Shown in pieces: positions 10,467 to 38,593 of a DNA stretch of 49,498 nt. The DNA is taken from positions 1 to 49,498 of the forward strand of contig CAYPVA010000001.1 in NCBI GenBank assembly GCA_964414045.1, in the 5' to 3' direction. The position numbers were made by a program, and so were the translations under genes. Every line of letters begins with the position of its first letter. Positions within the stretch are counted from its first letter, which is position 1. The notes beneath the pieces were generated by a model. The model saw nothing but the letters and a program-made list of their open reading frames with translations. It was not told the DNA's origin and ran no database searches. The stretch comes from an uncultured Lishizhenia sp. (GTDB lineage Bacteria > Bacteroidota > Bacteroidia > Flavobacteriales_D > Crocinitomicaceae).

Positions 10467-12329
10467 GTGGACAAAGCATTCAAGAATTATTTTTGGCTCT
10501 GTATTGTGGGCCTTTTTTCTAGCACTTCTATAGCTCAAACGGCTGAGCGTCAGTCCGAACACCTGATTCCTACCGATGCAGTAACTGTTTTCAGTATCAA
10601 CAACATCAGTCTGCTACAAAAAATATCCATGGATGACCTCGTACAATACGAGTTCATGTCTGACGTACATCAAGAATTATTCGATGGTTCAACTTCCGGT
10701 AAAACGCTCAAAGATGCAGGCCTAGATTTCAATCAACGGCTCAATTTGTTTTACGGCAAAACAACGAAAACTGAACTCACCGGCTTCACATTTGGCGTGG
10801 GTAACAAACAACAACTTTTTGAGGTTTTTGACGACTTTCAAACCCTACAAAGCGACATCAAAGGTCTAGAAGTCTACGGAACTTTCTTCAATAACTTACT
10901 CATTCAAGGCAACACCGCGCTATTATTGCGCATTGAGCCAACGATGGAATACATCGATCAGGTCACCGATTCCATTTGGTATGCAAGGGGTAATGAAATG
11001 CCGTTTGACTTTTTTGATGAGGTACAGCAGGAAGAGGAAGTACTGAACGAACAAGAATACGATACGCAAAGTGGGCTTTTCCCAGAAGCGACAGAAAATC
11101 CACTCATCAAAAATTACTACGAGCTCAGAGATAGCGTACAAGTAATGTTGCAACAAGCAGAACTCGAGCGTGTCATCACGCAAATTTTTATCGAGGGCAA
11201 AAATCTTTGTTCTCAAGATCAACGCTTTGTAAACCAGCTTTTGCACAATGCAGAAGGAGCTTTCTACCTAGACAACGCTAGAAATCTTGACAAATCACAG
11301 GGGCTTTGGTATTTTCAGACGGTGCTGCCTACACTCTACAAAGACATTCAAGACCTCTATGCCGGTAATGTTATTCTAGGCGATTTATTTTTGAAAGACA
11401 ACAGCGTTGAATTTGCTGTAGAGGCGCAATATGGCCCAGCGCTCGGCAGTATTTATGCGGAAATGAATGACGCTAAATTTGATAAAAATGTACTCAAGTA
11501 TATTCCAGCAAGTAGCTCAGCATATTTTACGTACAACATTAACATGCAAAAAGCTTATGAGCAAGCCTACAAAGTGATACTTCCATTGCTTTCTGACGAG
11601 AAAAATGCACAAATTGCCATGAATGTTTTGACACTTGAATTGCTCAATGAGTTTGTCAACAAAGACGCGCTTTTTAGTACATACAAAGGCAGTATGTTTG
11701 GTACATTTAATGGTGTCGAGAAAATCAAGACTAAAAAAATCGAATTTTACTACGACGAAGAAACCTTCGAATACGGTGAGCGCGAAACTGATGCTGAAAC
11801 TGAAATGCCCGTATTTACACTCGGATTCTCTACCGACCGTTCGGACATCCCTGAGCTCGTATTAAAACATCTTTCCAGACTCACTTCACGCGTTCAGAAG
11901 CAAGAAAATTACTGGCGTTTCGACAACGCAATTTTAGATGCAGCCCCCTTGTTTATCATCAATACCGGTGACTTACTGATCCTTTCAAATGATGCCGCTT
12001 TTGCAAATAACTATGCCAAAGGCTATGGCAAGTTGGCACTGTCAAAAAAAGAAGCTAAAAAAGCCAGTAAGGGTGGCTTTATGTATGGAAAAGTAGACAT
12101 CAGTAGCACGCTCAATCGCTTCCCCACGGAATTGCTCACTCCAAAAAATGCAGAGGTTATTTCGTCTTTAAAAGGAAAGTCAGGTATGCTCGAACTCATT
12201 TCTTCAGAGACCGATACTGAGCACACAACCTTCAAGCTCAATTATACTTTCAAAGGAGAAGAGCAAACAGGCAAACACTTGTTGGATCTCATTAATTCAC
12301 TTTATTTAGTTTATACTTTAAATCCTTAG
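10467..12329 (+). CDS. Hypothetical secreted protein, 620 aa
   Basis: GTG start with signal peptide WLCIVGLFSSTSIAQ. I recognise no catalytic motif. The N-terminal region resembles that of the next gene. Confidence 0.6.
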   Translation: MDKAFKNYFWLCIVGLFSSTSIAQTAERQSEHLIPTDAVTVFSINNISLLQKISMDDLVQYEFMSDVHQELFDGSTSGKTLKDAGLDFNQRLNLFYGKTTKTELTGFTFGVGNKQQLFEVFDDFQTLQSDIKGLEVYGTFFNNLLIQGNTALLLRIEPTMEYIDQVTDSIWYARGNEMPFDFFDEVQQEEEVLNEQEYDTQSGLFPEATENPLIKNYYELRDSVQVMLQQAELERVITQIFIEGKNLCSQDQRFVNQLLHNAEGAFYLDNARNLDKSQGLWYFQTVLPTLYKDIQDLYAGNVILGDLFLKDNSVEFAVEAQYGPALGSIYAEMNDAKFDKNVLKYIPASSSAYFTYNINMQKAYEQAYKVILPLLSDEKNAQIAMNVLTLELLNEFVNKDALFSTYKGSMFGTFNGVEKIKTKKIEFYYDEETFEYGERETDAETEMPVFTLGFSTDRSDIPELVLKHLSRLTSRVQKQENYWRFDNAILDAAPLFIINTGDLLILSNDAAFANNYAKGYGKLALSKKEAKKASKGGFMYGKVDISSTLNRFPTELLTPKNAEVISSLKGKSGMLELISSETDTEHTTFKLNYTFKGEEQTGKHLLDLINSLYLVYTLNP

Positions 12330-12331
12330 AC

Positions 12332-13660
12332 ATGTATCGGAAGTTCCTGACGCTTGTCATGATTGCTGGTGCTTTGGCACTGATCCTCTTTGTCAAATCT
12401 TTTTTATTTGCGGTTCCGAAGTCACCAAGGCTTATTGATCGTCTGCCTACTGCAGATTTCCTCGCAAAGGCAAACATTTTGGAACTTGCCAAAGAAACCA
12501 ATTCGTTGTTGCAATACAACAAGTTGTCCATGCGTGATTTCACAACTTACGAATTTTTGCTAGGACAAGGAAAGCAATATGGCCTTGATCTTGAGCAAGA
12601 TGCCTATTTATTTGCGCAAGAAAATGGCGATTGGGGAGCGTTGCTCAAATTAACAGATTCTTCCAAAGTTCAAGTAGGTATCGAGCGGCTTAAGAAATAT
12701 GCTGAATTACAAGATTCCGTAATCGGAAACACGACCTTTTATTACATCAAAAAAGAAAAGTCCTATTTACATTACGGCAAAGACTACGCTTTTATTTATC
12801 AAGGAGCAAATTTTGACCGTTTGTTGAATCAGGTGGCCTCGGCTCATTACGGAGACCTACACAAAGATTGGGAGTTGTTTTTAAAACAAAAGCAATTCAA
12901 GAATGAGCATTTGGTCATCTATGCCAATTGGCCCAAATTACGCAGCTACAACATTCAAACTGCCATGTTTGCCCATGATAGCGATTCACTTGGCTTCAAA
13001 CTTAAAAGTTATGTCAAGAAGAAAACGCCACTATATTTTTCAATGAAACGCGATGGCCTTACTTACCACACGGTCCCCAAGACAGATCGCCTGATAGATG
13101 TACACCTTGACATCCATGAATTCAAGCAACATCCAGAAGATTCAGTTTACATTCAATTGGCTAAACTGAGTAAAAAAGTAGGATTTCCGTTTGAACGCTT
13201 TTTAAAGGCATGGAATGGTGACCTCGTTTATCAGCAAGGAGGCTTGCAAGTGCAAGAAACACGATATATCGAAACGATCCTCGATGAAGATTTCAATGAA
13301 ACAGAGGTAGAGCGCGTGCGCTATGATACAGTACCAGCATTTTCGGTATTTGCTTCGCTCAATAGAATGGGGCCGCTTTTTATATCAAAATTGGCACAAA
13401 AAGGCTTATTGCGCGAAGATGAAGGTGGCTATCGCTTTTTATTTTCACCCTTACTTCGTTTCAATAAAATTGGACCTTTTTACCAATATTACACCGGTGA
13501 TTTTCCACCAAGAATCATTAAAGGTCATGAAAACCAGGTCTTGTGGAAACACAAAGGCACCAATTATTATTTTCGCATAGAGCGCATGACGCGTTACGAA
13601 ATATTCGGAACACTTCAGGTACCAGTAAGAAGTTTATTGAGAAGAAATAAACTGATCTAA
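12332..13660 (+). CDS. Hypothetical membrane-anchored or secreted protein, 442 aa
   Basis: N-terminal hydrophobic anchor (LTLVMIAGALALILFV). It starts 2 nt after the previous stop. The family is unknown. Confidence 0.6.
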   Translation: MYRKFLTLVMIAGALALILFVKSFLFAVPKSPRLIDRLPTADFLAKANILELAKETNSLLQYNKLSMRDFTTYEFLLGQGKQYGLDLEQDAYLFAQENGDWGALLKLTDSSKVQVGIERLKKYAELQDSVIGNTTFYYIKKEKSYLHYGKDYAFIYQGANFDRLLNQVASAHYGDLHKDWELFLKQKQFKNEHLVIYANWPKLRSYNIQTAMFAHDSDSLGFKLKSYVKKKTPLYFSMKRDGLTYHTVPKTDRLIDVHLDIHEFKQHPEDSVYIQLAKLSKKVGFPFERFLKAWNGDLVYQQGGLQVQETRYIETILDEDFNETEVERVRYDTVPAFSVFASLNRMGPLFISKLAQKGLLREDEGGYRFLFSPLLRFNKIGPFYQYYTGDFPPRIIKGHENQVLWKHKGTNYYFRIERMTRYEIFGTLQVPVRSLLRRNKLI

Positions 13661-28566: not shown

Positions 28567-29994
28567 TTAGAGAATAACTTTTTGGGACCTTCCTGCTTGA
28601 TTTTTTAGAAAGTAAATGCCTTTAGTCAAATTTTTGATGGGAATGCGTTGCTTACCTTCATCAAATATAAAGGAGGCTTCTAACTGACCCATAGTGTTCA
28701 ATAGGTCAAGTTGTAGTGTATTTTCACACATGATGTAGATGAATTCAGCATCTTGGCCTAATAACTTCCAATTGGTTAGATTTAAATTTTCAAGACCTGC
28801 TCCACCATCTAGGTTGATTTTCACGATGTAATCCAACACATTGGCACAAGAGTCATCATATATCGCATAATTGACCAATCCGCGGGTAATGTCGTCATAG
28901 CCATCCAAGATCAGGTTTTCGATGTAAGTAGAGTCTTGGGAGCAAAAACAATTGGCATTCACCTGGAAATTCTTGTCAGTGAGATTTTGTAAATTGTAAG
29001 AAGCGTTGAAACAAATGCTATTATTCTCAATTAGGGTAGAGTTAGGGCTGTAGGCTATGACAGCAACACCAATATTGTTATTATTGATAGTGTTATTGGT
29101 GAGAATTCCGTTATCACCAAGTTTGACAGCAATGTCATTGTTTTCAAAAACACAAGCAGTGATGTTATCAGATCCAGTATTGTCAATTGCTACACCGTTT
29201 CCTTCGAAGTAACAATTCTGAATGGTATGCCCAAAACCTTCAGCAAAAGCAAAGTCATTGTCAATAAATTGACAATTAGAAACCATTCCTGGTGAACCAA
29301 CAATGTTGTTTCCATTTCCTTGAAACAAGCAATTGGTTACACTGATGAATTGTGCCCATGTGAAAGAACAGAAATTATTGATGAACTGACAATTATTGGC
29401 TGTTAGAGAGCCAGTGATAATTTGAGCAGCTTGTCCAACTCCATTTCCTTCAAATAAACAGCCTTCATAAACCATATTAGCATTCAATTGAACGCCGTAA
29501 TTGTTGTTTTTAAACTGACAGTTGGTCCAATCGTAGCTCACACCAGGTTGAGCGATATCATTTGCGATTCCGTAGTAGCTATCATGCAACCTGAAGCGAT
29601 CCAGTTGAACATTTCCGCCTTGCGACCCCTTAATATTGATACCATACCAAGTTTGTTGTCCGGGTATGCTGACATCGGTAGTTTTAAAAGTAATTGGCGC
29701 TGAATCGGTACCGATAGCAATGAGCGTTCCTCTCACTTCTAGGTATCGCAAGTTTCCAGTATTGAAAGAATAATCAGGAGTTACTTTGACTTCGACACCT
29801 GGTTCAATCGTTAAAGTCACTCCAGGAAAAACAACCATTGAGCCAGTCATGAGGTAAGGGCTATTTGCTGCGGTCCAAGTAGTATTTTGGTAAATACCGC
29901 CTGACACAGTGGTTTGGGAAAACAAATTTGCGAATACCAAAAGGAAGCATAATAGTAGCGTATATTTCATTTTGCTAAGTTTATTTTTATTCAT
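28567..29994 (-). CDS. Right-handed parallel beta-helix repeat protein with a T9SS C-terminal sorting domain
   Basis: Signal peptide, then at least 8 repeats of about 22 aa of the form nC-F-xNN/GNG (NCQFKNNNYG, GCLFEGNGVG, NCQFINNFCS, NCLFQGNGNN, NCQFIDNDFA, NCYFEGNGVA, ACVFENNDIA). The CTD ends KGIYFLKNQAGRSQKVIL. An alternative start is the ATG at 29970. Confidence 0.75.
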   Translation of the reverse strand: MNKNKLSKMKYTLLLCFLLVFANLFSQTTVSGGIYQNTTWTAANSPYLMTGSMVVFPGVTLTIEPGVEVKVTPDYSFNTGNLRYLEVRGTLIAIGTDSAPITFKTTDVSIPGQQTWYGINIKGSQGGNVQLDRFRLHDSYYGIANDIAQPGVSYDWTNCQFKNNNYGVQLNANMVYEGCLFEGNGVGQAAQIITGSLTANNCQFINNFCSFTWAQFISVTNCLFQGNGNNIVGSPGMVSNCQFIDNDFAFAEGFGHTIQNCYFEGNGVAIDNTGSDNITACVFENNDIAVKLGDNGILTNNTINNNNIGVAVIAYSPNSTLIENNSICFNASYNLQNLTDKNFQVNANCFCSQDSTYIENLILDGYDDITRGLVNYAIYDDSCANVLDYIVKINLDGGAGLENLNLTNWKLLGQDAEFIYIMCENTLQLDLLNTMGQLEASFIFDEGKQRIPIKNLTKGIYFLKNQAGRSQKVIL

Positions 29995-30092: not shown

Positions 30093-30130
30093 CAAAAAAA
30101 AGAGGGCAAGCCTGTGGCTTGCCCTCTTTT
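30093..30130 (-). terminator. Strong symmetric (bidirectional-type) terminator closing the endonuclease operon
   Basis: A8, then AGAGGGCAAGCC-TGT-GGCTTGCCCTCT (12-bp perfect stem), then TTT. It begins 19 nt past the stop at 30149. Confidence 0.85.
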
Positions 30131-30148
30131 AGATATTCACTTGAGATT

Positions 30149-32410
30149 TTATTCAATCACAAATTCGCGTTTAACTGAACCATGAATTGTTTCAACATTG
30201 ATGTAATAAACACCAGCTTTCAAATCTGAAGTATTGTATTCTAGAACAGGTAATTTGATATCGCTTTCACTAGCAATCTGACGACCTTGAATATCAACAA
30301 TGTTGTATGCAACGATGTCAAGACCGTTTACTTGTGCGTAAAGTTTTGCGCTTGTAGGTACAGGGAAAACTGAAAAATTAACAGCCAATTGCTCTTCTAC
30401 ACCCATGTCGCAGTTCAAGTAGCTCATGTTCGCAAAATTGACATGGCAAGCAAAATGTGTTGAATCTATGTAAGGATTGCGATTCCCCTGAAGTACGGCA
30501 ACATATTCGTGGCGCGCAATTTCGTAGTTGTCCGGTAAGTCATTAAAATGCCATGTTTTCAATGACTCTTGACTTTGATTGGCAGGTAATTGCCAGTTAT
30601 TTCCAGACACGCCGTTGTAACAGGTAGCCATGTAGAATATAGAGCGAGCCGCATTTCCTTTTTGTTCAGGGCGTGGTTCATATACCAATTGGTTTCCTGA
30701 GTATCCAACACGTCCTCCTAAATAGGTGAAGACAACATTGCCATCAATATCCATTAACGGAAGATTACTACGCGGTGTGTTGGCTTGTTGCAGGTTTGTA
30801 GGCCATAGGTTATGTTGGTCGTTGTATTCAGGTTCTTCGGGATTGTCACATGGGAAAGTTGGCATCCAAGAATGTGAGTAGGTATGCTCTCTTGAATAAC
30901 CAGTAGATGTCCATGTAAATGGATCGTTGAAAACTTTGCGCTCTCCTGAATAAACACATAGTACATATGATTGGCCATTTGTTGTGTCTCGCACTTCATA
31001 CTGTGTAGCCATTGTGGTCAGGTAATTGTAGTAAGAAATGGAAGTGTGAGGGTTGATCAAAGCACTCAAATCTGTTAGGAAGCTAGATGATCCGGATTGA
31101 ATACCTGCATAATAGTTACCGATTTGTTGACCTTGACTTGTCACATTTCCTGTAGCAGGATTTGTGGTTTTGTAATTTTGATATCCATTTGGCCCATTAA
31201 ATGCATACACAGCGAAGTGGTAGTTGTTGTTGGCTTCAATATGACGCGGCGTAAATGCAGTACCGGCACCGATGTAGGCTACCTTTGCATTTCCGATGAC
31301 ATCACCTCTTTTGTAGGTTGTTCCGTCAATTGGAAGTCCAGCTACAGGGCCTCCAATGCGCCATAATACAATGTAGTTTTCTGCTGTAACTGCAGGGTAT
31401 TCACCTGCTAAAGTATATGCTTTAACCAGTGGAAAAGTAATGCTTGCCGGATTAGAGGCTGGCTCTGTTGCGAGGTTGTTTGTCCCGATGCCATAAAGGT
31501 TGATGATGTATGGATTTTCATCGGTATCATCGTTGGCAAGTGAAAGCGTTGCCAAACGAGATCCAGGGCCACCTGCTGCATAATTGAGTGTAACCGTTTG
31601 TGTACTGTTCGGGCCAACGACTACATTGGCAGCGCAGCTGTAGTCTGCCGCGTTGGCACCAGTAAAGCTTGCTCCTGAAACGGTCAAATTTTGAACACCA
31701 TAATTTTCAATTGTTATTGTGGTAGCTGCAGCAGTACCAACTACATAAGTATCGCCTGTCAATACATTATTTCCGTTGATTTTTACATTGATTTCTCTGG
31801 CCGGCGCAACATAAGTAAACATGTCCGAAATGCTTCTTGGTATCAACTGATAATTTGTGTTGAACTGTCCCATCAGACCAATAATGCTAATTGGACCAGA
31901 TGGAATGGCAGAACCGTCAATATTTGTGGTGCCATTGATACGAACATCAAAAGTATTGGAACCATCAAAAATTTGCACGGTACTGTTTCCGGTAGCAAAG
32001 CTTCCTGTTTGTACGAAAGTCACGTTGTCAAAGCGAACAAGTTGTCCTTCGAGTGCCTCACCGGCACTCGGGATAGGAATGACAACTGGTGCGGGTTGTA
32101 CTGCGGCTTGACCATGGTTCGTAAATGAATTGGTTGGAGACAACTCAAGTAAACCATTGAATTCAAAAAGCACACCAACTGCAGTGATGGAGTCACCTTT
32201 GATAATTGTGTTCAGGTTTGAGCCATAGCAAGCAATACCTGCTGTGCCATCTTGAATGTAACGGATTGGCCCTAATTCACTTCCGTTCGTAACCACCCCA
32301 CTGACGGTAACGGTTTGTCCGATCCCGAGGTTGCGTACTTGTTCGATACTTTGAGCAAAGAGCTGCTGACCAAAGCAGAGCACTGCTAAACTGAATAATA
32401 GTTTTTTCAT
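30149..32410 (-). CDS. Multidomain secreted endonuclease I (EndA/Vvn family) with a T9SS C-terminal sorting domain
   Basis: Signal peptide MKKLLFSLAVLCFGQQLFAQ. The N-terminal OB-like module reads GQTVTVSGVVTNGSELGPIRYIQDGTAGI, followed by Ig-like and FN3-like modules. The endonuclease I core has REHTYSHSWMP, DQHNLWPTNLQQANTPRSN, KGNAARSIFYM and GNRNPYID. The CTD is KAGVYYINVETIHGSVKREFVIE. Confidence 0.85.
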   Translation of the reverse strand: MKKLLFSLAVLCFGQQLFAQSIEQVRNLGIGQTVTVSGVVTNGSELGPIRYIQDGTAGIACYGSNLNTIIKGDSITAVGVLFEFNGLLELSPTNSFTNHGQAAVQPAPVVIPIPSAGEALEGQLVRFDNVTFVQTGSFATGNSTVQIFDGSNTFDVRINGTTNIDGSAIPSGPISIIGLMGQFNTNYQLIPRSISDMFTYVAPAREINVKINGNNVLTGDTYVVGTAAATTITIENYGVQNLTVSGASFTGANAADYSCAANVVVGPNSTQTVTLNYAAGGPGSRLATLSLANDDTDENPYIINLYGIGTNNLATEPASNPASITFPLVKAYTLAGEYPAVTAENYIVLWRIGGPVAGLPIDGTTYKRGDVIGNAKVAYIGAGTAFTPRHIEANNNYHFAVYAFNGPNGYQNYKTTNPATGNVTSQGQQIGNYYAGIQSGSSSFLTDLSALINPHTSISYYNYLTTMATQYEVRDTTNGQSYVLCVYSGERKVFNDPFTWTSTGYSREHTYSHSWMPTFPCDNPEEPEYNDQHNLWPTNLQQANTPRSNLPLMDIDGNVVFTYLGGRVGYSGNQLVYEPRPEQKGNAARSIFYMATCYNGVSGNNWQLPANQSQESLKTWHFNDLPDNYEIARHEYVAVLQGNRNPYIDSTHFACHVNFANMSYLNCDMGVEEQLAVNFSVFPVPTSAKLYAQVNGLDIVAYNIVDIQGRQIASESDIKLPVLEYNTSDLKAGVYYINVETIHGSVKREFVIE

Positions 32411-32412
32411 AG

Positions 32413-35148
32413 TTAGAATTGTATTGCTAGATTGACATTGAAACGCAATCCTTGACCAAACATAACGGTGGCAGATTGTGCATTGAATTGATCATAGATG
32501 CCGTTTGCATTGTTAGTGGCATCAGATATAAAAGAGGTGTTTAGTAGATTCGTGACGGCTGCTCCAAAACTCATCTTTTTGTAGCGATAACCCGCAAAAA
32601 CATTGATTAAAGAATAAGAAGGAATTTTCCATGAATCGCGTCCACCATTGCTACCTTGTAATGAGAACGGATCGAAATTGGCGTAGTAGCGATCAAAAAA
32701 TTGACCTTGCATTTTGATATAACCATTTTTTATTGGTTCATAACGCAAAGCAGCAGCAAGTGCGGTTTGGGCGGCATCACCCACATGAACGCCTTTGGCA
32801 TCAAATGTGAATTCTAAAGAATCGTATTGTGGAATAAAGACTGTCTTGCTTGAATTCCAAATCCAATTACCATAGGAGAACATGAATTCAAACGATAATT
32901 TGGGAGTAATTTCCCAGGCCACATCGATTTCTTGCCCCAAGTGAATGGCATCCATGCCATTGATATTGACTCGGATGAATTCTGTAGGGTCATTGGGGTC
33001 TGGAACTGCTACACCGTAAGGAAACGGTTTGTTTTTCCAGTTCGTGAAGTAGGCATTGAAATTGACGCCAAAGTGCTTGTTGGTATAATGATAACCACCT
33101 TCAGCAGCATAGATGATTTCATTGACAATTTCACCAAAAAAGGAATTGGTATTGTTGTCAATTACATTTGAAAACTGCGGTGTTCGGTTCAAGTATCCTA
33201 AGTTGCAATAGATATCTTGAAACTTATTGAGTTTGTAGCTCAGTCCTGATTTGATGGTAATACCTGGAATATACTTCCAATCCGTGGCAAAATATGCTAA
33301 ACCTGCTGAACTCGCATTATAAACTTGACCGTTATAGGTAATTGTGTCAAGCGCGCCAATGCGCAAAATGGTATCGCCGAGGTCTAGCACTTTGCGTTGA
33401 AAATAATCTACGCCTTTGTATCCGTTAACAATGCTTGATACATTGACAAACCAATTCACCTTGTCACCACTGTGCTCGATTTGACCAAATAAACCAGCAT
33501 ATTGCACGATGCCATCTCGATCTGCATTAAAGGTGTTTTTGGCAATTTTGTCGCCAACGCGTTTCATTGGATTGGGGTCATTGAAATTGGCAGTGCTGAC
33601 AAAATAGTCGGCACCTAGAAGATTGGTAATGACTTGATAGTGACGCCCTTCATAATAACGGTAGTCAAGACCACCCGAAATAGCTGTTTTTTTGTTGTAT
33701 TGGTAGTTGAATTGTCCAAGATAGCCCAGCCAAAAATGATTGTTCATGCTGGCCAAAAGAATTTGACTGGCTTTGATTTCGGTCGGCGAATAGATCGGAT
33801 CAATGTTTGGGGTGCCAAATAGGGTATTTACTGTATTTTCTGTCACCATTTGATCCCAATCAATATTCATGTTGGAATCGCGAAGTATCGCTGATGAGTT
33901 AAAAATACTCGTGCCCCCTCCACGACCGATAGACAGGTATGCCAAGTTTGAAATGTCTAGTTTGTCATTGACTGACCAAAAATCTTTGAGTGTAATTTGC
34001 GGTTTGTTGTAAAAATTTTGACGCTCACTTAAAAATTCTTGACGACCTTCTTCATTTGTAATATAACCCCAGTGTTGGTTGTAACGAATACCTCGGTCAT
34101 TGAGAATGAGCGAAGAATCATATGGAATGCCTAATTCTTGAGCGCTGGTAGCATCCCAATATTGTATCGATTGATTGTAGGATCGTTGCCCGTGTTTTTG
34201 TGGCGCTGCAAAAGCAGAAAGCGTGAGCAGGTGGTTGTCAAGGCGTTTTGATATTTTAGCATAGCCAAAGTATCCTTGTGTAGGCGTGCCGTCTACCCAA
34301 CCTTGTCCTTGTTTGTAGGAGCCGGAGAAGGTGAGGCCCCATCCTGATTTGGTCATGCCCGTATTGTAGGAAAGCGAGCTGCGTAAGAAATTTCCTGTAG
34401 CAAATTCTTGTTTAAAAGTACCACCTTGCTTGGTTCCTACGCCTTGGGTAATGATGTTAATGGTACCGCCGATTGAAGGCATTGCAATTTTGGTAGCGCC
34501 GAGCCCACGTTGCACTTGCATTTGAGATGTAATGGCATCTAGGCCGAACCAGTTGGACCAATATACAGCGCCGTTTTCCATGTCATTGACAGGTACACCG
34601 TCAATCATAACGCCGACATTGCGTTGGTCAAAACCGCGGACATTGATGCGGGCATCGCCGTCACCGCCTCCCTGATTGGTGGCATAAACACCAGGTGTTC
34701 CGTTTAAAAGCATTGGTAAATCACGAGAGGCCAATTCCTCAGTGATTTTTTTAGTGTCAATTTTCGTAACTGCCACGGGAACATTCTGACCTCTTACGAG
34801 GTTGCCGATTACCCTAATTTCTTTTACTTCTTGAGTTTCCCCGATAGCAAAGTCTTGAACTACCATTGCTTTATTGAGCGTGATGTCATAGCGCAAAGTA
34901 TCTTGTAAGGGTAAAGTAAAGACCAGCTGATACTTGCCAAAAGGGATATTCTTGAATTCGTATTTACCTTCTTCGTTTGTGGCGGTACGGGCAATGTAAT
35001 CTTTACCACTGTAGAGTGTGATTTTTGCACCAGGAACCGTATTTTCACCGGGATTCATAGTGGCGGCACCTGAAATTGAACCAGTTTCTTGTGCGAGGAT
35101 TGTTTGGGTAAAAATTACCGAAAACAGGGACAATAAAAATAAACGCAT
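32413..35148 (-). CDS. TonB-dependent receptor with an N-terminal carboxypeptidase-regulatory-like domain; no SusD partner
   Basis: The signal peptide is followed by GAKITLYSGKDYIARTATNEEGKYEFKNIPFGKY (CarboxypepD_reg-like). The plug has LLNGTPGVYA...ARINVRGFDQRNVGVMIDGVPVND. A long barrel ends NVNLAIQF. Confidence 0.88.
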   Translation of the reverse strand: MRLFLLSLFSVIFTQTILAQETGSISGAATMNPGENTVPGAKITLYSGKDYIARTATNEEGKYEFKNIPFGKYQLVFTLPLQDTLRYDITLNKAMVVQDFAIGETQEVKEIRVIGNLVRGQNVPVAVTKIDTKKITEELASRDLPMLLNGTPGVYATNQGGGDGDARINVRGFDQRNVGVMIDGVPVNDMENGAVYWSNWFGLDAITSQMQVQRGLGATKIAMPSIGGTINIITQGVGTKQGGTFKQEFATGNFLRSSLSYNTGMTKSGWGLTFSGSYKQGQGWVDGTPTQGYFGYAKISKRLDNHLLTLSAFAAPQKHGQRSYNQSIQYWDATSAQELGIPYDSSLILNDRGIRYNQHWGYITNEEGRQEFLSERQNFYNKPQITLKDFWSVNDKLDISNLAYLSIGRGGGTSIFNSSAILRDSNMNIDWDQMVTENTVNTLFGTPNIDPIYSPTEIKASQILLASMNNHFWLGYLGQFNYQYNKKTAISGGLDYRYYEGRHYQVITNLLGADYFVSTANFNDPNPMKRVGDKIAKNTFNADRDGIVQYAGLFGQIEHSGDKVNWFVNVSSIVNGYKGVDYFQRKVLDLGDTILRIGALDTITYNGQVYNASSAGLAYFATDWKYIPGITIKSGLSYKLNKFQDIYCNLGYLNRTPQFSNVIDNNTNSFFGEIVNEIIYAAEGGYHYTNKHFGVNFNAYFTNWKNKPFPYGVAVPDPNDPTEFIRVNINGMDAIHLGQEIDVAWEITPKLSFEFMFSYGNWIWNSSKTVFIPQYDSLEFTFDAKGVHVGDAAQTALAAALRYEPIKNGYIKMQGQFFDRYYANFDPFSLQGSNGGRDSWKIPSYSLINVFAGYRYKKMSFGAAVTNLLNTSFISDATNNANGIYDQFNAQSATVMFGQGLRFNVNLAIQF

Positions 35149-35149
35149 A

Positions 35150-36211
35150 TTAGCGAATGATTACTTTATGAAGCGCTTGTTGGCCGTCAGTAAGTGTCAG
35201 TCGGATAAAGTAAACGCCTTGTAAAGCACTGAGGTCAAGTTCTAAGACCGCCTGACTAGGAGCAAGGTTGTATTCTTTTACCTGTTGACCTAGTGCAGAA
35301 ATTACTTGAGCTTTACGCACTTGGTTTTGTGTTTTGATGTAAACTAAACCGTTGCTTGGATTAGGGTAAATACTTGGGCTAATGTTCGCAGTTTCTTTGA
35401 CACTGTTTGCGTTGCAATCGCAGTTATGAGAACCTAAAGAAGTCCAGTTGCCGTCAAGGATTGGATTTCCTGAAGTACCATAGAGTGTATCTCCGTTGGC
35501 ATCGAGGCGAACAACTACTGCCGGAATGCTATCCCATTCTAGGAGTGGATCAAAGAAAGATGGGTTGCCAACTTGACCCTTTAAAACAGTTGCTTTACGG
35601 ATCATGCTGTGGTCTTTGGTGATCAGAACGCCAAGTCCAGTGCTGTACGGGAATTGACTAGACCAAGCACCGTCATTACCTGAGGCAGTCCCTGTTTCAT
35701 TTGCAGGGTTTTCTCCAATTTTTCCGAAGACGTCAACAATGGCAAAGCCAGCAACATTCGTGGCATTAATAACTGTAGTTGCACTTGCAGGTAGCGTACC
35801 TTTTGCGAGTAGGATAGCGTCGTTTCCATTCCAGTAGAACGCATTTGAAGTGTTGTAGTCTGGGCAATAAAAACCATCTGCACGGCCCTGAAGTGAATCC
35901 CAAACAGGTGCTTCTTGTCCTGTGCCATTTGGATCGAGTTTTTCTAATACCGCGACATACACTCCTTTTGCAGGGACCGTACCGTTGAGTTGAATGGAGT
36001 TAGCTACTGTAGCAGTGGTAGCACCATTCGAGTAGCGGCTCACAAAATAACCCGATAAATTGATCGGATTATTGGTTGGGTTGTAGATTTCAAGCGCCTT
36101 GTTGTTTGACCAACCCTCAACATATTCAGAAATGAATAGCTCGTTGCAATTGTTTTGAGCATAGAGGTTAGCACCAAGAATGAAAATAATAGAAAGTAGA
36201 GCTTGCTTCAT
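35150..36211 (-). CDS. Lamin-tail-domain (LTD) protein with a T9SS C-terminal sorting domain
   Basis: MKQALLSIIFILGANLYAQ signal peptide, LTD signature LFISEYVEGWSNNKALEIYNPTNNPINLSGY, and CTD YPNPSNGLVYI...LQGVYFIRLTLTDGQQALHKVIIR. The ATG at 36211 is preferred over the GTG at 36229. Confidence 0.8.
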   Translation of the reverse strand: MKQALLSIIFILGANLYAQNNCNELFISEYVEGWSNNKALEIYNPTNNPINLSGYFVSRYSNGATTATVANSIQLNGTVPAKGVYVAVLEKLDPNGTGQEAPVWDSLQGRADGFYCPDYNTSNAFYWNGNDAILLAKGTLPASATTVINATNVAGFAIVDVFGKIGENPANETGTASGNDGAWSSQFPYSTGLGVLITKDHSMIRKATVLKGQVGNPSFFDPLLEWDSIPAVVVRLDANGDTLYGTSGNPILDGNWTSLGSHNCDCNANSVKETANISPSIYPNPSNGLVYIKTQNQVRKAQVISALGQQVKEYNLAPSQAVLELDLSALQGVYFIRLTLTDGQQALHKVIIR

Positions 36212-36310
36212 GAGTTTAATTTTTATCACCGAGCATTTAGCTTTGAAAATTTGTAACTTTCTATGGTTTCGGCATCAAAGGAGCCTCAAGGAGGTCATAA
36301 AAAGTCTGAC

Positions 36311-36318
36311 ACAAATTT
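36311..36318 (-). promoter_or_regulatory. Candidate -7 box TAAATTTG for the LTD/TBDR/endonuclease operon; a second candidate TAGATTTG is at 36351-36358
   Basis: Plus-strand CAAATTTA and CAAATCTA. Either implies a leader of about 95-135 nt. Confidence 0.3.
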
Positions 36319-36433
36319 AGTGCTTTTCAATTAAATCAAAAAATCTGTTGTCAAATCTATTTTATCAAAAAGTTAAGTCCAAAGGAAGACGCCAATTTTA
36401 AACTATGTATCTTAGGGGCAAAATAAATTTACT

Positions 36434-38593
36434 ATGAAAAGTTTCTCTTGGTTTGTCCTCTTTTTCTTGCTGAGCCAATCAATTTTATCACAGGATTTGA
36501 CTATTCCCCGAATCTGGAAAAATTATGAATTCACTGCGAAAGGTGCGGGTTCTTACCAAATGCTTCAAGATGGCGTGTCTTACACTGAACTAGATGAGAA
36601 GGGTGATTTAGTGAAAAGGTCACTCAATGAAACAGTGAAGGCAGAAATTTTAGTGAGTGCCGCAAAGCTTGTTTGGAATAATGTGCCAATCACAGTAGCA
36701 GGTTATGACTTCAATAAAGATGAACAAAAGGTTTTGCTTTGGACAGCTCCAAAAGCAATATACCGCAGAAGTTTTGAAGCATTCTATTTTCTTTATGATT
36801 TAAAAACCCAAAGTTTAACTGCCTTAGATGAAGAACACGCGCCTCAAACATTGGCAGAATATAGCCCAGATGGCACAAAAGTTTCGTACATCCATGGCAA
36901 TGACATCTTTGTTAAAGATTTGCTTTCTGGTAAAGTCCGCAAAATGACTGAAGACGGCAAGCGCAATAAAATCATCAATGGAACCACAGACTGGGTATAT
37001 GAAGAGGAATTTGCCATTACGAAAGCCTATGGTTGGTCGCCGGATAGTAAATACTTGGCGTTTTTGAAGTTTGATGAGCGGGACGTGCCTGAATTTCAAA
37101 TGGCCATTTATGGTGAATTGTATCCGCAGCAATATACCTACAAATACCCTAAAGCTGGTGAAAACAATTCTAAAGTAAGCCTTTATTTACTGCAAGTAGC
37201 TAGCGGAAAGTCACAACAAATTGAGCTTGGTAATTATGAGTACATTCCAAGATTAAATTGGTCAGAGACCTCCAATCAACTCATCGTTCAGACGATGAAT
37301 AGACATCAGAATGAATTGAATTATTGGCTTCTCGATTGTAATTCAAAACAAGTATCAACCAAACCGCTTTACCAAGAAAAATCTGATACATATGTTGAAG
37401 TAGATGACAATTTATGTATTCTAAAAGACGGCAAATCGTTTTTGCGTTGCAGCGAAATGTCAGGCTACAATCATATTTATCGTATTGGTTTTGATGGTAG
37501 TGTTCAGTCCATCACTTCAGGCAATTGGGATGTTATTGAGTTTTTAGGATTGGACCAAGAAGCGGCTGTTGTATATTATGCCAGTGCCGAACCAGGTGCG
37601 ATCTATAAGTCGGTTTATGCTGTGCGTATAGATGGTTCTCAAAAAACGAATTTGACCCCTGTTCTAGGATATCACCATGCTGAATTCTTGAACGGAATGA
37701 AGTATTTTATACATAGCTATTCAAATGCAAATACACCACCCGTTATTTCGCTTAGAAAAGCATCCGGAGAGCTCGTTCGTACCTTGGAGCAAAACAATGA
37801 TTTGCTTTCAAAAATGAAGAACGAAAGACTCAATCCAAGAACTTTCTTAACTATTCAAACGCCTGAAGTCACACTCAATGCGTCTTTGATTTTGCCACTC
37901 AATTATGATCCAGCTAAAAAATATCCGGTATTTGTCAATGTATATGGTGGCCCAGGACACAATGAAGTGTTGGATAGCTGGGATGGCAATGATTATTTTT
38001 TCCATCAGTTACTTGCCCAAAATGGTTATATGGTACTCAGTATTGATCCAAGAGGCACGCAATACCGCGGAACAGCATTCAAAAAGTCTACGTATTTACA
38101 ATTAGGGAAGCTAGAGATCGAAGATGTACTTGCTGCCACAAAAGCGTTTGCCATGCGTCCAGATGTTGATGCAAGTCGTTTAGGCATCATGGGCTGGAGT
38201 TATGGTGGTTTCATGTCTTCATTGGCCATGACCAAAGGCCAAGGATTATTCAAAGTTGGTATTGCTGTAGCACCTGTAACCAATTGGCGTTATTATGACA
38301 ACATTTACACAGAACGATTTCTAAGAACACCTCAAGAAAATGCAAAAGGTTATGACGAAAACTCACCGATCAATTTTGTAAAAGATATGCAGGGCAAATA
38401 CTTCTTAATCCATGGTGCTGCAGATGACAACGTTCATTATCAGAATAGCATGGAAATGATTACTGCCCTCGTTAAAGCAAATAAGCAATTTGACTTATTT
38501 ATATACCCGAATAAAAATCATGGGATTTATGGTGGAAATACCCGCAACCATCTTTTTGAAATGATTTTCGAATATATACAAGAGGAACTGTAA
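36434..38593 (+). CDS. Dipeptidyl-peptidase IV (S9B prolyl oligopeptidase family)
   Basis: Signal peptide, an N-terminal beta-propeller region (DWVYEEEF), the catalytic GWSYGG motif, and DDNVH. Confidence 0.88.
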   Translation: MKSFSWFVLFFLLSQSILSQDLTIPRIWKNYEFTAKGAGSYQMLQDGVSYTELDEKGDLVKRSLNETVKAEILVSAAKLVWNNVPITVAGYDFNKDEQKVLLWTAPKAIYRRSFEAFYFLYDLKTQSLTALDEEHAPQTLAEYSPDGTKVSYIHGNDIFVKDLLSGKVRKMTEDGKRNKIINGTTDWVYEEEFAITKAYGWSPDSKYLAFLKFDERDVPEFQMAIYGELYPQQYTYKYPKAGENNSKVSLYLLQVASGKSQQIELGNYEYIPRLNWSETSNQLIVQTMNRHQNELNYWLLDCNSKQVSTKPLYQEKSDTYVEVDDNLCILKDGKSFLRCSEMSGYNHIYRIGFDGSVQSITSGNWDVIEFLGLDQEAAVVYYASAEPGAIYKSVYAVRIDGSQKTNLTPVLGYHHAEFLNGMKYFIHSYSNANTPPVISLRKASGELVRTLEQNNDLLSKMKNERLNPRTFLTIQTPEVTLNASLILPLNYDPAKKYPVFVNVYGGPGHNEVLDSWDGNDYFFHQLLAQNGYMVLSIDPRGTQYRGTAFKKSTYLQLGKLEIEDVLAATKAFAMRPDVDASRLGIMGWSYGGFMSSLAMTKGQGLFKVGIAVAPVTNWRYYDNIYTERFLRTPQENAKGYDENSPINFVKDMQGKYFLIHGAADDNVHYQNSMEMITALVKANKQFDLFIYPNKNHGIYGGNTRNHLFEMIFEYIQEEL

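Follow-up and report, generated by a model that had tools for sequence, protein, structure and literature searches.

A probable type IX secretion variant of the DdbCD-type nucleic-acid utilisation system in an uncultured Lishizhenia and related Bacteroidota

Organisation of the locus

A three-gene operon was analysed in a 49,498-nucleotide stretch of DNA from an uncultured Lishizhenia sp. (Crocinitomicaceae; GenBank assembly GCA_964414045.1, contig CAYPVA010000001.1, positions 1 to 49,498 of the forward strand), which is referred to below as the window. The operon encodes a protein with a lamin-tail domain (LTD), a TonB-dependent receptor and a protein in which an oligonucleotide/oligosaccharide-binding (OB) module is joined to an endonuclease I; the first and third proteins carry type IX secretion system (T9SS) C-terminal domains (CTDs). 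On balance, the locus is probably a T9SS variant of the DdbCD-type nucleic-acid utilisation system of Bacteroidota, with nutrient scavenging as its main purpose. Its elements, in the order of transcription, are the following.

36312..36319, minus strand: Bacteroidetes-type -7 box TAAATTTG (TAnnTTTG), with TTTG about 17 nt upstream of the box
36248..36309, minus strand: leader RNA, with a P1 stem of 9-11 bp, an internal loop and a short variable P2 hairpin
35150..36211, minus strand: gene 1 (353 aa), with a type-I signal peptide, LTD, middle region and T9SS type-A CTD
32413..35148, minus strand: gene 2 (911 aa), a TonB-dependent receptor with signal peptide, plug and barrel
30149..32410, minus strand: gene 3 (753 aa), with a signal peptide, OB module, Ig/FN3 region, endonuclease I and T9SS CTD
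30098..30130, minus strand: intrinsic terminator, a 15-pair stem (8 G-C) with a 3-nt loop, then the T-run TTTTGTTATA

Open reading frame (ORF) calling placed the three genes at 36211 (ATG) to 35150, 35148 to 32413 and 32410 to 30149, with intergenic gaps of 1 nt and 2 nt, which reproduced the tight minus-strand packing reported in a preliminary description made from the DNA letters alone. In an alignment of relatives, the ATG of gene 1 at 36211 was kept rather than the GTG at 36229. The terminator noted in the same description was also present, beginning 18 nt past the stop codon of gene 3 (stem-loop 30130-30098), with a stem of 15 pairs and not of 12 bp. The TAnnTTTG box was shared in an alignment of upstream regions from related loci. 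This motif is the consensus of Bacteroidetes sigma-A promoters; a sigma-70 promoter scan returned 21 sites against 20.9 expected. Profile searches of Pfam and NCBIfam matched the domains that had been listed for all three genes, and the reported lack of SusD agreed with zero Pfam matches to the SusD family among window ORFs of at least 150 aa. The signal peptides of all three proteins ended in A-Q-type cleavage sites, with no lipobox Cys at +1. The triad was present in identical form on 4 independent metagenome contigs. Judging by the names that close homologues bear, the host belongs to freshwater Flavobacteriales of the Crocinitomicaceae/Cryomorphaceae-like kind.

Gene 2 encodes a receptor of the DdbC family

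DdbC and DdbD are the TonB-dependent receptor and the DUF5689 protein of the ddbABCDEF locus of Bacteroides thetaiotaomicron, which also encodes three active nucleases (PMC12478041, PNAS 2025). The following elements were located in the receptor of the window.

Gene 2, residues 25-93, minus strand: CarboxypepD_reg-like N-extension (Pfam 2e-7, slightly below the Pfam cut-off)
Gene 2, residue 110, minus strand: TonB-box-like EIRVIG
Gene 2, residues 121-229, minus strand: plug (Pfam Plug, E 1.7e-14)

DdbC sequences of the subtypes Bt1, Bt2, Pv1 and Pv2 were taken as queries from Table S3 of the bioRxiv version of Sharan et al. In BLASTP, the receptor aligned with Pv2 DdbC at 30.2% identity (residues 2-911 against 7-865, E 4e-126) and end to end with Pv1 DdbC (E 8e-119), and it matched Bt2 DdbC at E 8e-35 and Bt1 DdbC at E 1e-21. 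As a scale for divergence within DdbC, Pv1 and Bt2 matched each other at E 6e-62. A search of PDB chains, among which many TonB-dependent receptors are included, gave nothing at E<=1e-3, and the NCBIfam scan found no SusC/RagA signature on the receptor. Considering the full-length match with DdbC and the lack of a match with PDB receptors, the window receptor is, as judged from its sequence, a true DdbC-family member of the Pv branch.

Gene 3 joins a DdbD-like module to an endonuclease I

Four parts were distinguished in the gene 3 protein.

31796-32353, minus strand: DdbD-like DUF5689/HIN-like tandem-OB module, residues 20-205 (Pfam, AlphaFold2, Foldseek)
31091-31795, minus strand: Ig/choice-of-anchor-D and FN3-like region, residues 206-440 (choice-of-anchor-D E 2.8e-10)
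30461-31081, minus strand: endonuclease I, residues 444-650 (Endonuclease_1 E 1.7e-22)
30152-30370, minus strand: T9SS CTD, residues 681-753 (Por_Secre_tail)

The Endonuclease_1 match covered profile positions 5-233 of 235 (PF04231), and the motifs SREH (506-509), DQHNL (531), N544, RSN and NRNP were all found. The core also matched Vvn (1OUP), with N544 paired in the alignment with Asn 109 of the chain, which we take to be the Mg2+-ligand Asn127; the E-H pair of SREH, as judged from the family, presumably corresponds to Vvn Glu79-His80. By these sequence features the endonuclease I core is complete, and the protein is a predicted nuclease. No second nuclease besides gene 3 was found in the window ORFs. 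The T9SS sorting domain was borderline in the window protein (TIGR04183 score 23.8 bits, cut-off 23; Pfam 7.3e-6) and was present in 44 of 51 homologues located at +1 of the receptor.

The N-terminal part matched DUF5689 at residues 99-196 (Pfam, E 5.9e-13, 49.6 bits against a cut-off of 28.6). Searching with a profile of the OB module yielded fragments for the most part, and these were used solely for depth of the multiple sequence alignment. AlphaFold2 modelling of residues 1-440 with 22 close homologues gave a mean predicted local distance difference test (pLDDT) score of 45.5 and an unusable model; modelling of residues 20-205 from a 44-sequence alignment gave a pLDDT of 96 and a predicted TM-score (pTM) of 0.89. 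In this model the module, described earlier as OB-like, folds as a tandem OB domain. The 35 best PDB matches in Foldseek were HIN-200 tandem-OB domains (IFI16, MNDA, p204, AIM2 and p202, including 4JBM) and Teb1, at probability 1.0 and E values from 4e-5 to 1e-3; the TM-scores were only 0.35-0.42 because the two OB halves differ in orientation. Matches to RPA and to LysRS anticodon domains were also obtained. DdbD itself structurally resembles the dsDNA-binding HIN domain of p202, 4JBM (PMC12478041).

Because the module matches DUF5689, has a HIN-like fold in the model and is encoded directly downstream of the receptor, where DdbD stands relative to DdbC, gene 3 is most plausibly an endonuclease I to which a DdbD-like DNA-binding module is joined via Ig-like spacers. 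The OB module probably fills the role of the missing SusD. The locus had been likened to a polysaccharide utilisation locus (PUL) without SusD; this wording is not supported, since the SusD-like role most likely falls to the DUF5689 module fused to the nuclease. The fusion of OB module and nuclease was kept in more than 120 protein clusters. Several proteins of about 290-330 aa (P0445, P0448-P0452 and P0487) consisted solely of DUF5689 and a T9SS CTD and look like unfused, T9SS-exported equivalents of DdbD.

Gene 1 encodes an LTD protein

The gene 1 protein was divided as follows.

35792-36154, minus strand: LTD, residues 20-140 (Pfam LTD, E 2.5e-13)
35372-35791, minus strand: middle region, residues 141-280, kept across 66 homologues, no Pfam family
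35153-35371, minus strand: T9SS CTD, residues 281-353 (Pfam Por_Secre_tail, E 2.4e-11)

The TIGR04183 score of 42.6 bits against the NCBIfam cut-off of 23 identified the protein as T9SS type-A cargo. Its N-terminal part matched the NCBIfam ExeM N-terminal region (E 5.9e-15), and a search against PDB sequences gave no match. A near-invariant G-x-H-x-C-x-C motif (HNCDC at residue 262) was seen in the middle region, and homologues of gene 1 had an invariant Cys right behind the signal peptide; these sites may form a metal or disulfide site.

The triad is conserved and its nuclease is exchanged

The first two homologue searches returned close relatives only (at least 69% identity). An exhaustive search gave 413 clusters at 50% identity for the receptor family (E<=1e-30). 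Species-representative genomes were scanned with a diverse receptor alignment as the query, and the best 80 loci were analysed; they came from Flavobacteriales, Saprospiraceae, Chitinophagales, environmental Bacteroidales, Hymenobacter and a few oddly labelled metagenome-assembled genomes (MAGs).

When Pfam matches were counted by position, the gene at -1 of the receptor had an LTD in 57/63 cases and Por_Secre_tail in 59/63, and the 51 genes at +1 had Por_Secre_tail in 44 cases, Endonuclease_1 in 29, PLDc_2 in 16 and DUF5689 in 23. Evaluable loci were then counted with local hidden Markov models and explicit room criteria. A gene with LTD and CTD stood at -1 in 57 of 66 such loci, a T9SS nuclease at +1 in 45 of 52, and the complete triad of LTD protein, receptor and nuclease was found in 43 of 51. 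LTDs were found in 59 of 69 ORFs at -1 against 4 of 688 elsewhere in the loci, and nucleases in 45 of 60 at +1 against 6 of 697 elsewhere; Fisher p-values for these differences overstate independence because the loci are phylogenetically related. The preliminary description had proposed a synteny comparison across Bacteroidota, and the triad indeed co-occurs far beyond chance. It was lost in the most distant matches, with receptor identity of 35% or less.

The nuclease slot was occupied by Endonuclease_1 in 29 loci and by a phospholipase D (PLD) family nuclease with two HKD motifs in 16. Each of the 16 PLD-type proteins had both HKD motifs together with the same OB module and T9SS CTD as the endonuclease I type. 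Since the nuclease family is exchanged within a fixed slot, there is strong evidence from comparative sequence data that nucleic-acid cleavage beside the receptor is the selected function at +1. The loci that differ from the window at or behind this slot are listed here.

PLD-type nuclease at +1: L023, L024, L027-L030, L033, L035-L037, L039, L040, L046, L052, L059, L074
Other N-terminal module at +1: L016, L032, L038, L047, L050, L051, L053, L054, L058, L062, L063, L068-L073, L075
5'-nucleotidase genes at +2/+3: L012, L014, L015, L016, L018, L019, L020, L026, L053, L054, L062

No similarity between the OB module and the other N-terminal module was detectable (hhalign probability 0.3%), and the idea of one N-terminal module common to all +1 proteins was rejected on this ground.

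The 11 loci in the last line belong to sister Flavobacteriales, in which the operon is extended by separate 5_nucleotid_C (about 235 aa) and Metallophos (about 300 aa) genes. By their domains, these two genes are a split UshA-like 5'-nucleotidase with the C-domain encoded before the N-domain. The window lineage either lost the 5'-nucleotidase genes or never gained them.

Three environmental Bacteroidales MAGs (L034, L036 and L040) contained enlarged loci, with additional stand-alone Endonuclease_1-CTD genes downstream and large upstream proteins (830-1100 aa) joining LTD and OB modules. Several loci (L007, L064, L077, L081, L084, L014, L028 and L063) came from MAGs labelled Sphingomonadales, Comamonadaceae, Chloroherpeton, Latescibacterota or 'Chryseobacterium gleum'. 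These labels are probably binning or labelling errors; the two complete 'Latescibacterota' chromosomes might be real.

A structured leader RNA precedes the operon

Alignment of the regions upstream of gene 1 revealed a conserved element just past the -7 box. Its internal loop, which lies between P1 and P2, is asymmetric and strongly conserved (5' CUCCUUGA / 3' YGAAAC). Covariance model R1 scored the window copy at 58.2 bits (E 3.8e-12). With this model, which was built on a two-stem structure, exactly one copy per locus was found in 15 sources after 1.33 Mb had been searched; each copy found by the model had the strand of the operon and preceded the LTD gene, and that of L038 was outside the training set. 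A metagenome pattern scan matched at least 120 stretches, mostly by chance; among the 80 loci listed from them, 2 were positive with the covariance model, both directly upstream of an LTD-CTD gene, which in one case is followed by a DdbC-like receptor. Altogether, the leader stood directly upstream of the LTD gene of the triad in 17 of 17 instances (15 model sources and 2 among the metagenome matches listed).

Leader RNA: window, L005, L006, L009, L011, L015, L016, L018, L019, L026, L038, L042, L053, L054, L062, L132, L154
Mini-upstream ORF (mini-uORF): L053, L054, L038, L042, L011, L015, L026, L018, L019 (MKK*, MRK*, MIK*, MK*, MI*, MN*)

The leader was restricted to a subset of Flavobacteriales whose receptors were 39-94% identical to that of the window. 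Pairing was intact in 93.4% of cells, against 73.4 +/- 1.9% in shuffled alignments, and 0 of 500 shuffles were as high; when the 3' partner was shifted by 1-3 columns, pairing fell to at most 57%. Double changes occurred at 12 of 14 pairs. RNAalifold gave an 11-bp P1 with 10 covarying pairs, and the centroid fold of the window copy had the same two stems (z = -2.55). Against Rfam 15, a permissive cmscan over 36150-36440 returned only noise (E>=4), and an Rfam scan of the whole window at gathering thresholds detected tRNA only, with no match at the leader. A hammerhead or a C/D-box K-turn was considered by eye for the UGAUG/CUGA loop and set aside, as there are two stems rather than three and no supporting model.

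Ten loci had long leaders (125-160 nt), and in 9 of them a mini-uORF of 2-3 codons started 5-10 nt past the motif. The short leader of the window has a 6-codon uORF, MLGDKN*, that ends 5 nt ahead of the ATG. A simple terminator search in the leaders revealed no consistent attenuator. The element is a candidate new cis-regulatory RNA, with a regulatory role suggested by its conserved position and covariation. It could act as a riboswitch or as an element that responds to a protein or to the ribosome, sensing a nucleic-acid-derived metabolite or phosphate status, and in the long-leader loci it may act jointly with the mini-uORFs. Neither a structured leader RNA nor a natural-transformation alternative had been part of the preliminary description.

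Neighbouring genes

The flanks of the operon are housekeeping genes, among them those for a divergent DPP-IV peptidase, citrate synthase and gltX. Two further features of the window were recorded.

28567-29994, minus strand: 475-aa beta-helix protein with a weak T9SS CTD, directly past the operon terminator
10467-12329 and 12332-13660, plus strand: neighbouring genes, both DUF4836, tandem paralogues with no function assigned

The beta-helix protein lies outside the conserved triad, is unrelated to it and was kept only in the closest relatives (L005).

Proposed mechanism

According to the proposed scheme, all three proteins would pass the inner membrane via Sec by means of their type-I signal peptides, and the proteins of genes 1 and 3 would then be exported by the T9SS and be either attached to the surface or released. 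The tandem-OB module of gene 3 (HIN-like, DdbD-type) would bind extracellular DNA, as the LTD protein probably does too, and the endonuclease I domain of the same polypeptide would cut it into oligonucleotides. These would be imported to the periplasm by the DdbC-family receptor, with the OB module as the substrate-binding partner in the role of SusD or DdbD. The main purpose would be the scavenging of phosphate, nucleosides and nitrogen. The split UshA-like 5'-nucleotidase that sister lineages add to the operon is to be expected if imported oligonucleotides are processed to nucleosides and phosphate. Expression would be controlled by the dedicated structured 5' leader RNA. From the features described above, we infer that DNA is bound, that proteins are attached at the surface, that the OB module docks on the receptor and that oligonucleotides are transported, and likewise the physiological purpose and the regulatory role of the RNA. 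A more far-reaching and quite tentative proposal is that the leader represents a new cis-regulatory RNA class of this operon and that the OB-nuclease docks on the receptor as an active 'lid', which would couple cutting to import.

The ddb locus of B. thetaiotaomicron provides the experimental background. Its deletion abolished depletion of exogenous DNA and, likewise, production of uracil and xanthine from DNA, and DdbD was predicted by AlphaFold3 to cap DdbC (PMC12478041). Further precedent comes from a Riemerella endonuclease I that is exported by the T9SS and cleaves DNA and RNA (PMC12398890), and from the phosphate-responsive LTD nucleases of F. johnsoniae (PMC8115612). The idea of a system that binds, cuts and imports DNA is thus already in the literature. 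The preliminary description had read the locus as a machine for capture, cutting and import of extracellular DNA, and this mechanistic reading appears largely correct in view of the DdbC homology, the DdbD-type DUF5689/HIN-like fold, the intact nuclease core and the synteny. Its term 'surface-tethered' was an assumption, as type-A CTD cargo may be released instead. Its claim that such a system had no experimental demonstration is out of date in view of the ddb and Riemerella studies (PMC12478041, PMC8459023), transport through DdbC itself aside.

Several observations weigh against the proposed scheme or narrow it. The receptor did not reach >50% identity with >75% coverage to any DdbC subtype query, the best identity being 30%; since this lies below the 50% subtype cut-off, the locus falls outside Bt1, Bt2, Pv1 and Pv2 and constitutes a further type. 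Among the 45 nucleases at +1, 18, all of the endonuclease I type, had another N-terminal module in their first ~160 residues, so the OB 'lid' is common but not universal. Neither 5_nucleotid_C nor Metallophos genes were found in the window operon or in the rest of the window, and the operon has no periplasmic DdbB-like nuclease. For the window lineage, the case is built on gene structure, homology, predicted fold, synteny and the covarying leader. In the ddb study, transport of DNA or oligonucleotides via DdbC was inferred and not measured, and B. thetaiotaomicron grew poorly when DNA was its only source of C, N or P (PMC12478041), so that nutrient scavenging is not established for the family. 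In Riemerella, the closest Flavobacteriales relative characterised by experiment, the homologous pair serves transformation rather than catabolism (PMC8459023). Poor growth on DNA, together with functional data in Flavobacteriales that concern transformation solely, weighs against a purely nutritional role.

Alternative explanations

The strongest alternative, although rather unlikely, is DNA uptake for natural transformation of the Riemerella type, besides or instead of feeding. The receptor and its DUF5689 partner would then carry long DNA over the outer membrane to ComEC, ComF and DprA, and the fused nuclease would make entry ends or trim the DNA. RA0C_RS04915, a CarboxypepD_reg receptor, and RA0C_RS04920, a DUF5689 protein, are essential for natural transformation in R. 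anatipestifer, which belongs to Flavobacteriales like the window organism (Huang et al. 2021, PMC8459023); this pair has homologues in DdbC and DdbD, and a ddbB-like nuclease adjoins the pair (PMC12478041). However, ComEC, ComF and DprA were all missing among the genes of the 49.5-kb window, and an endonuclease without specificity, when fused to the DNA-binding module, would cut the incoming DNA to pieces. The continuation of sister operons with a 5'-nucleotidase also points to catabolism. Nutrient scavenging was therefore ranked first and transformation second; the two are not mutually exclusive.

It is improbable that the substrate is RNA or another phosphodiester polymer, which would make the locus a general scavenger of nucleic acids or organophosphates. 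Endonuclease I enzymes are sugar non-specific, PLD-family enzymes such as those in the alternative slot can act on a broader range of phosphodiesters, and OB folds bind ssDNA and RNA too, as the Teb1, RPA and LysRS anticodon-domain matches illustrate. The T9SS-exported endonuclease I of Riemerella is an active DNase and RNase (PMC12398890). Against this, the best structural matches of the OB module were dsDNA-binding HIN domains, and the experimental data for the family concern DNA only (PMC8459023, PMC12478041).

A role of the LTD protein and nuclease in remodelling of an extracellular-DNA matrix, biofilm dispersal or competition, with receptor cargo that is unrelated and linked by co-expression only, is very improbable: such roles are frequent among secreted nucleases (PMC12398890), and the ddbF homologue of B. 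thetaiotaomicron was originally reported as a DNase required for biofilms to form in a bile-dependent way (PMC8851478, cited in PMC12478041), but the order of LTD protein, receptor and nuclease is kept across orders in most evaluable loci despite the exchange of the nuclease family, the receptor is specifically DdbC-like and the nuclease carries a DdbD-type receptor-partner module.

Significance

New here is a widespread architectural variant: sorting relies on the T9SS instead of lipoprotein signals, an obligatory LTD protein accompanies the receptor, the DdbD-like module is fused to a nuclease that can be interchanged, and there is a candidate leader RNA. In water, soil and sediment, where Bacteroidota are leading polymer degraders, extracellular DNA represents a major phosphorus and nitrogen pool. 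TonB-dependent DNA utilisation has so far been described only in gut Bacteroidales, with lipoprotein-based ddb loci, and in Riemerella as a transformation system. The present data indicate that a system of related kind but different construction occurs widely in environmental lineages, namely freshwater Crocinitomicaceae-like Flavobacteriales, Saprospiraceae, Chitinophagales and environmental Bacteroidales. With the triad, DNA foraging, or DNA uptake, gains a concrete genetic marker that can be used in metagenomes, and the natural domain swaps at the nuclease slot are material for dissecting the mechanism. The ligand or partner of the candidate leader RNA could reveal the signal that turns DNA foraging on.

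Comparison with known systems

The core of gene 3 is like that of the periplasmic or secreted endonuclease I Vvn/EndA, and the LTD region of gene 1 is like that of the extracellular nuclease ExeM of Shewanella; those are stand-alone enzymes with no dedicated receptor, OB module or T9SS sorting. The same vocabulary of LTD, fn3 and Endonuclease_1 is found in EndA1 and EndA2 of F. johnsoniae (Fjoh_4721/4723; Lidbury et al. 2021, PMC8115612), extracellular nucleases for which a link to P scavenging is experimental, with log2 4.1-4.7 induction on phosphate depletion. There, however, a single polypeptide carries both the LTD and the nuclease, and the genes are listed as 'orphan', with association with a DdbC-type receptor unreported (PMC8115612).

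The locus resembles SusCD-type PULs in that a binding protein and a hydrolase at the surface are encoded together with a TonB-dependent importer. It differs from them in having neither SusD nor the SusC/RagA signature, in its predicted nucleic-acid substrate and in export by the T9SS rather than as lipoproteins.

Compared by domain descriptions, the locus has in common with RA0C_RS04915/04920 of Riemerella the occurrence in Flavobacteriales, a CarboxypepD_reg receptor next to a DUF5689 protein and an adjacent nuclease. RA0C_RS04920 has DUF5017 and choice-of-anchor J as additional domains and lacks a fused nuclease, and the role demonstrated there is transformation.

The ddb loci, in particular Pv1 and Pv2 of Phocaeicola vulgatus, share with the window a full-length DdbC-family receptor, with a CarboxypepD_reg N-extension as in Pv1, Pv2 and Bt2, a HIN-like DUF5689 module encoded directly after it, a secreted non-specific nuclease in the operon and a PUL-like logic without SusD. 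The window operon lacks the periplasmic nuclease with a type-I signal peptide (DdbB) and has T9SS CTDs where ddb proteins have lipoprotein (type-II) signals. Its DdbD-like module is fused to the nuclease, whereas it is a separate protein in ddb, and an LTD protein, unmentioned in PMC12478041, is the obligatory first gene of the window type. Finally, the ddb loci belong to gut Bacteroidales, whereas the host of the window is an environmental freshwater member of Flavobacteriales, in which a dedicated candidate leader RNA stands ahead of the operon.

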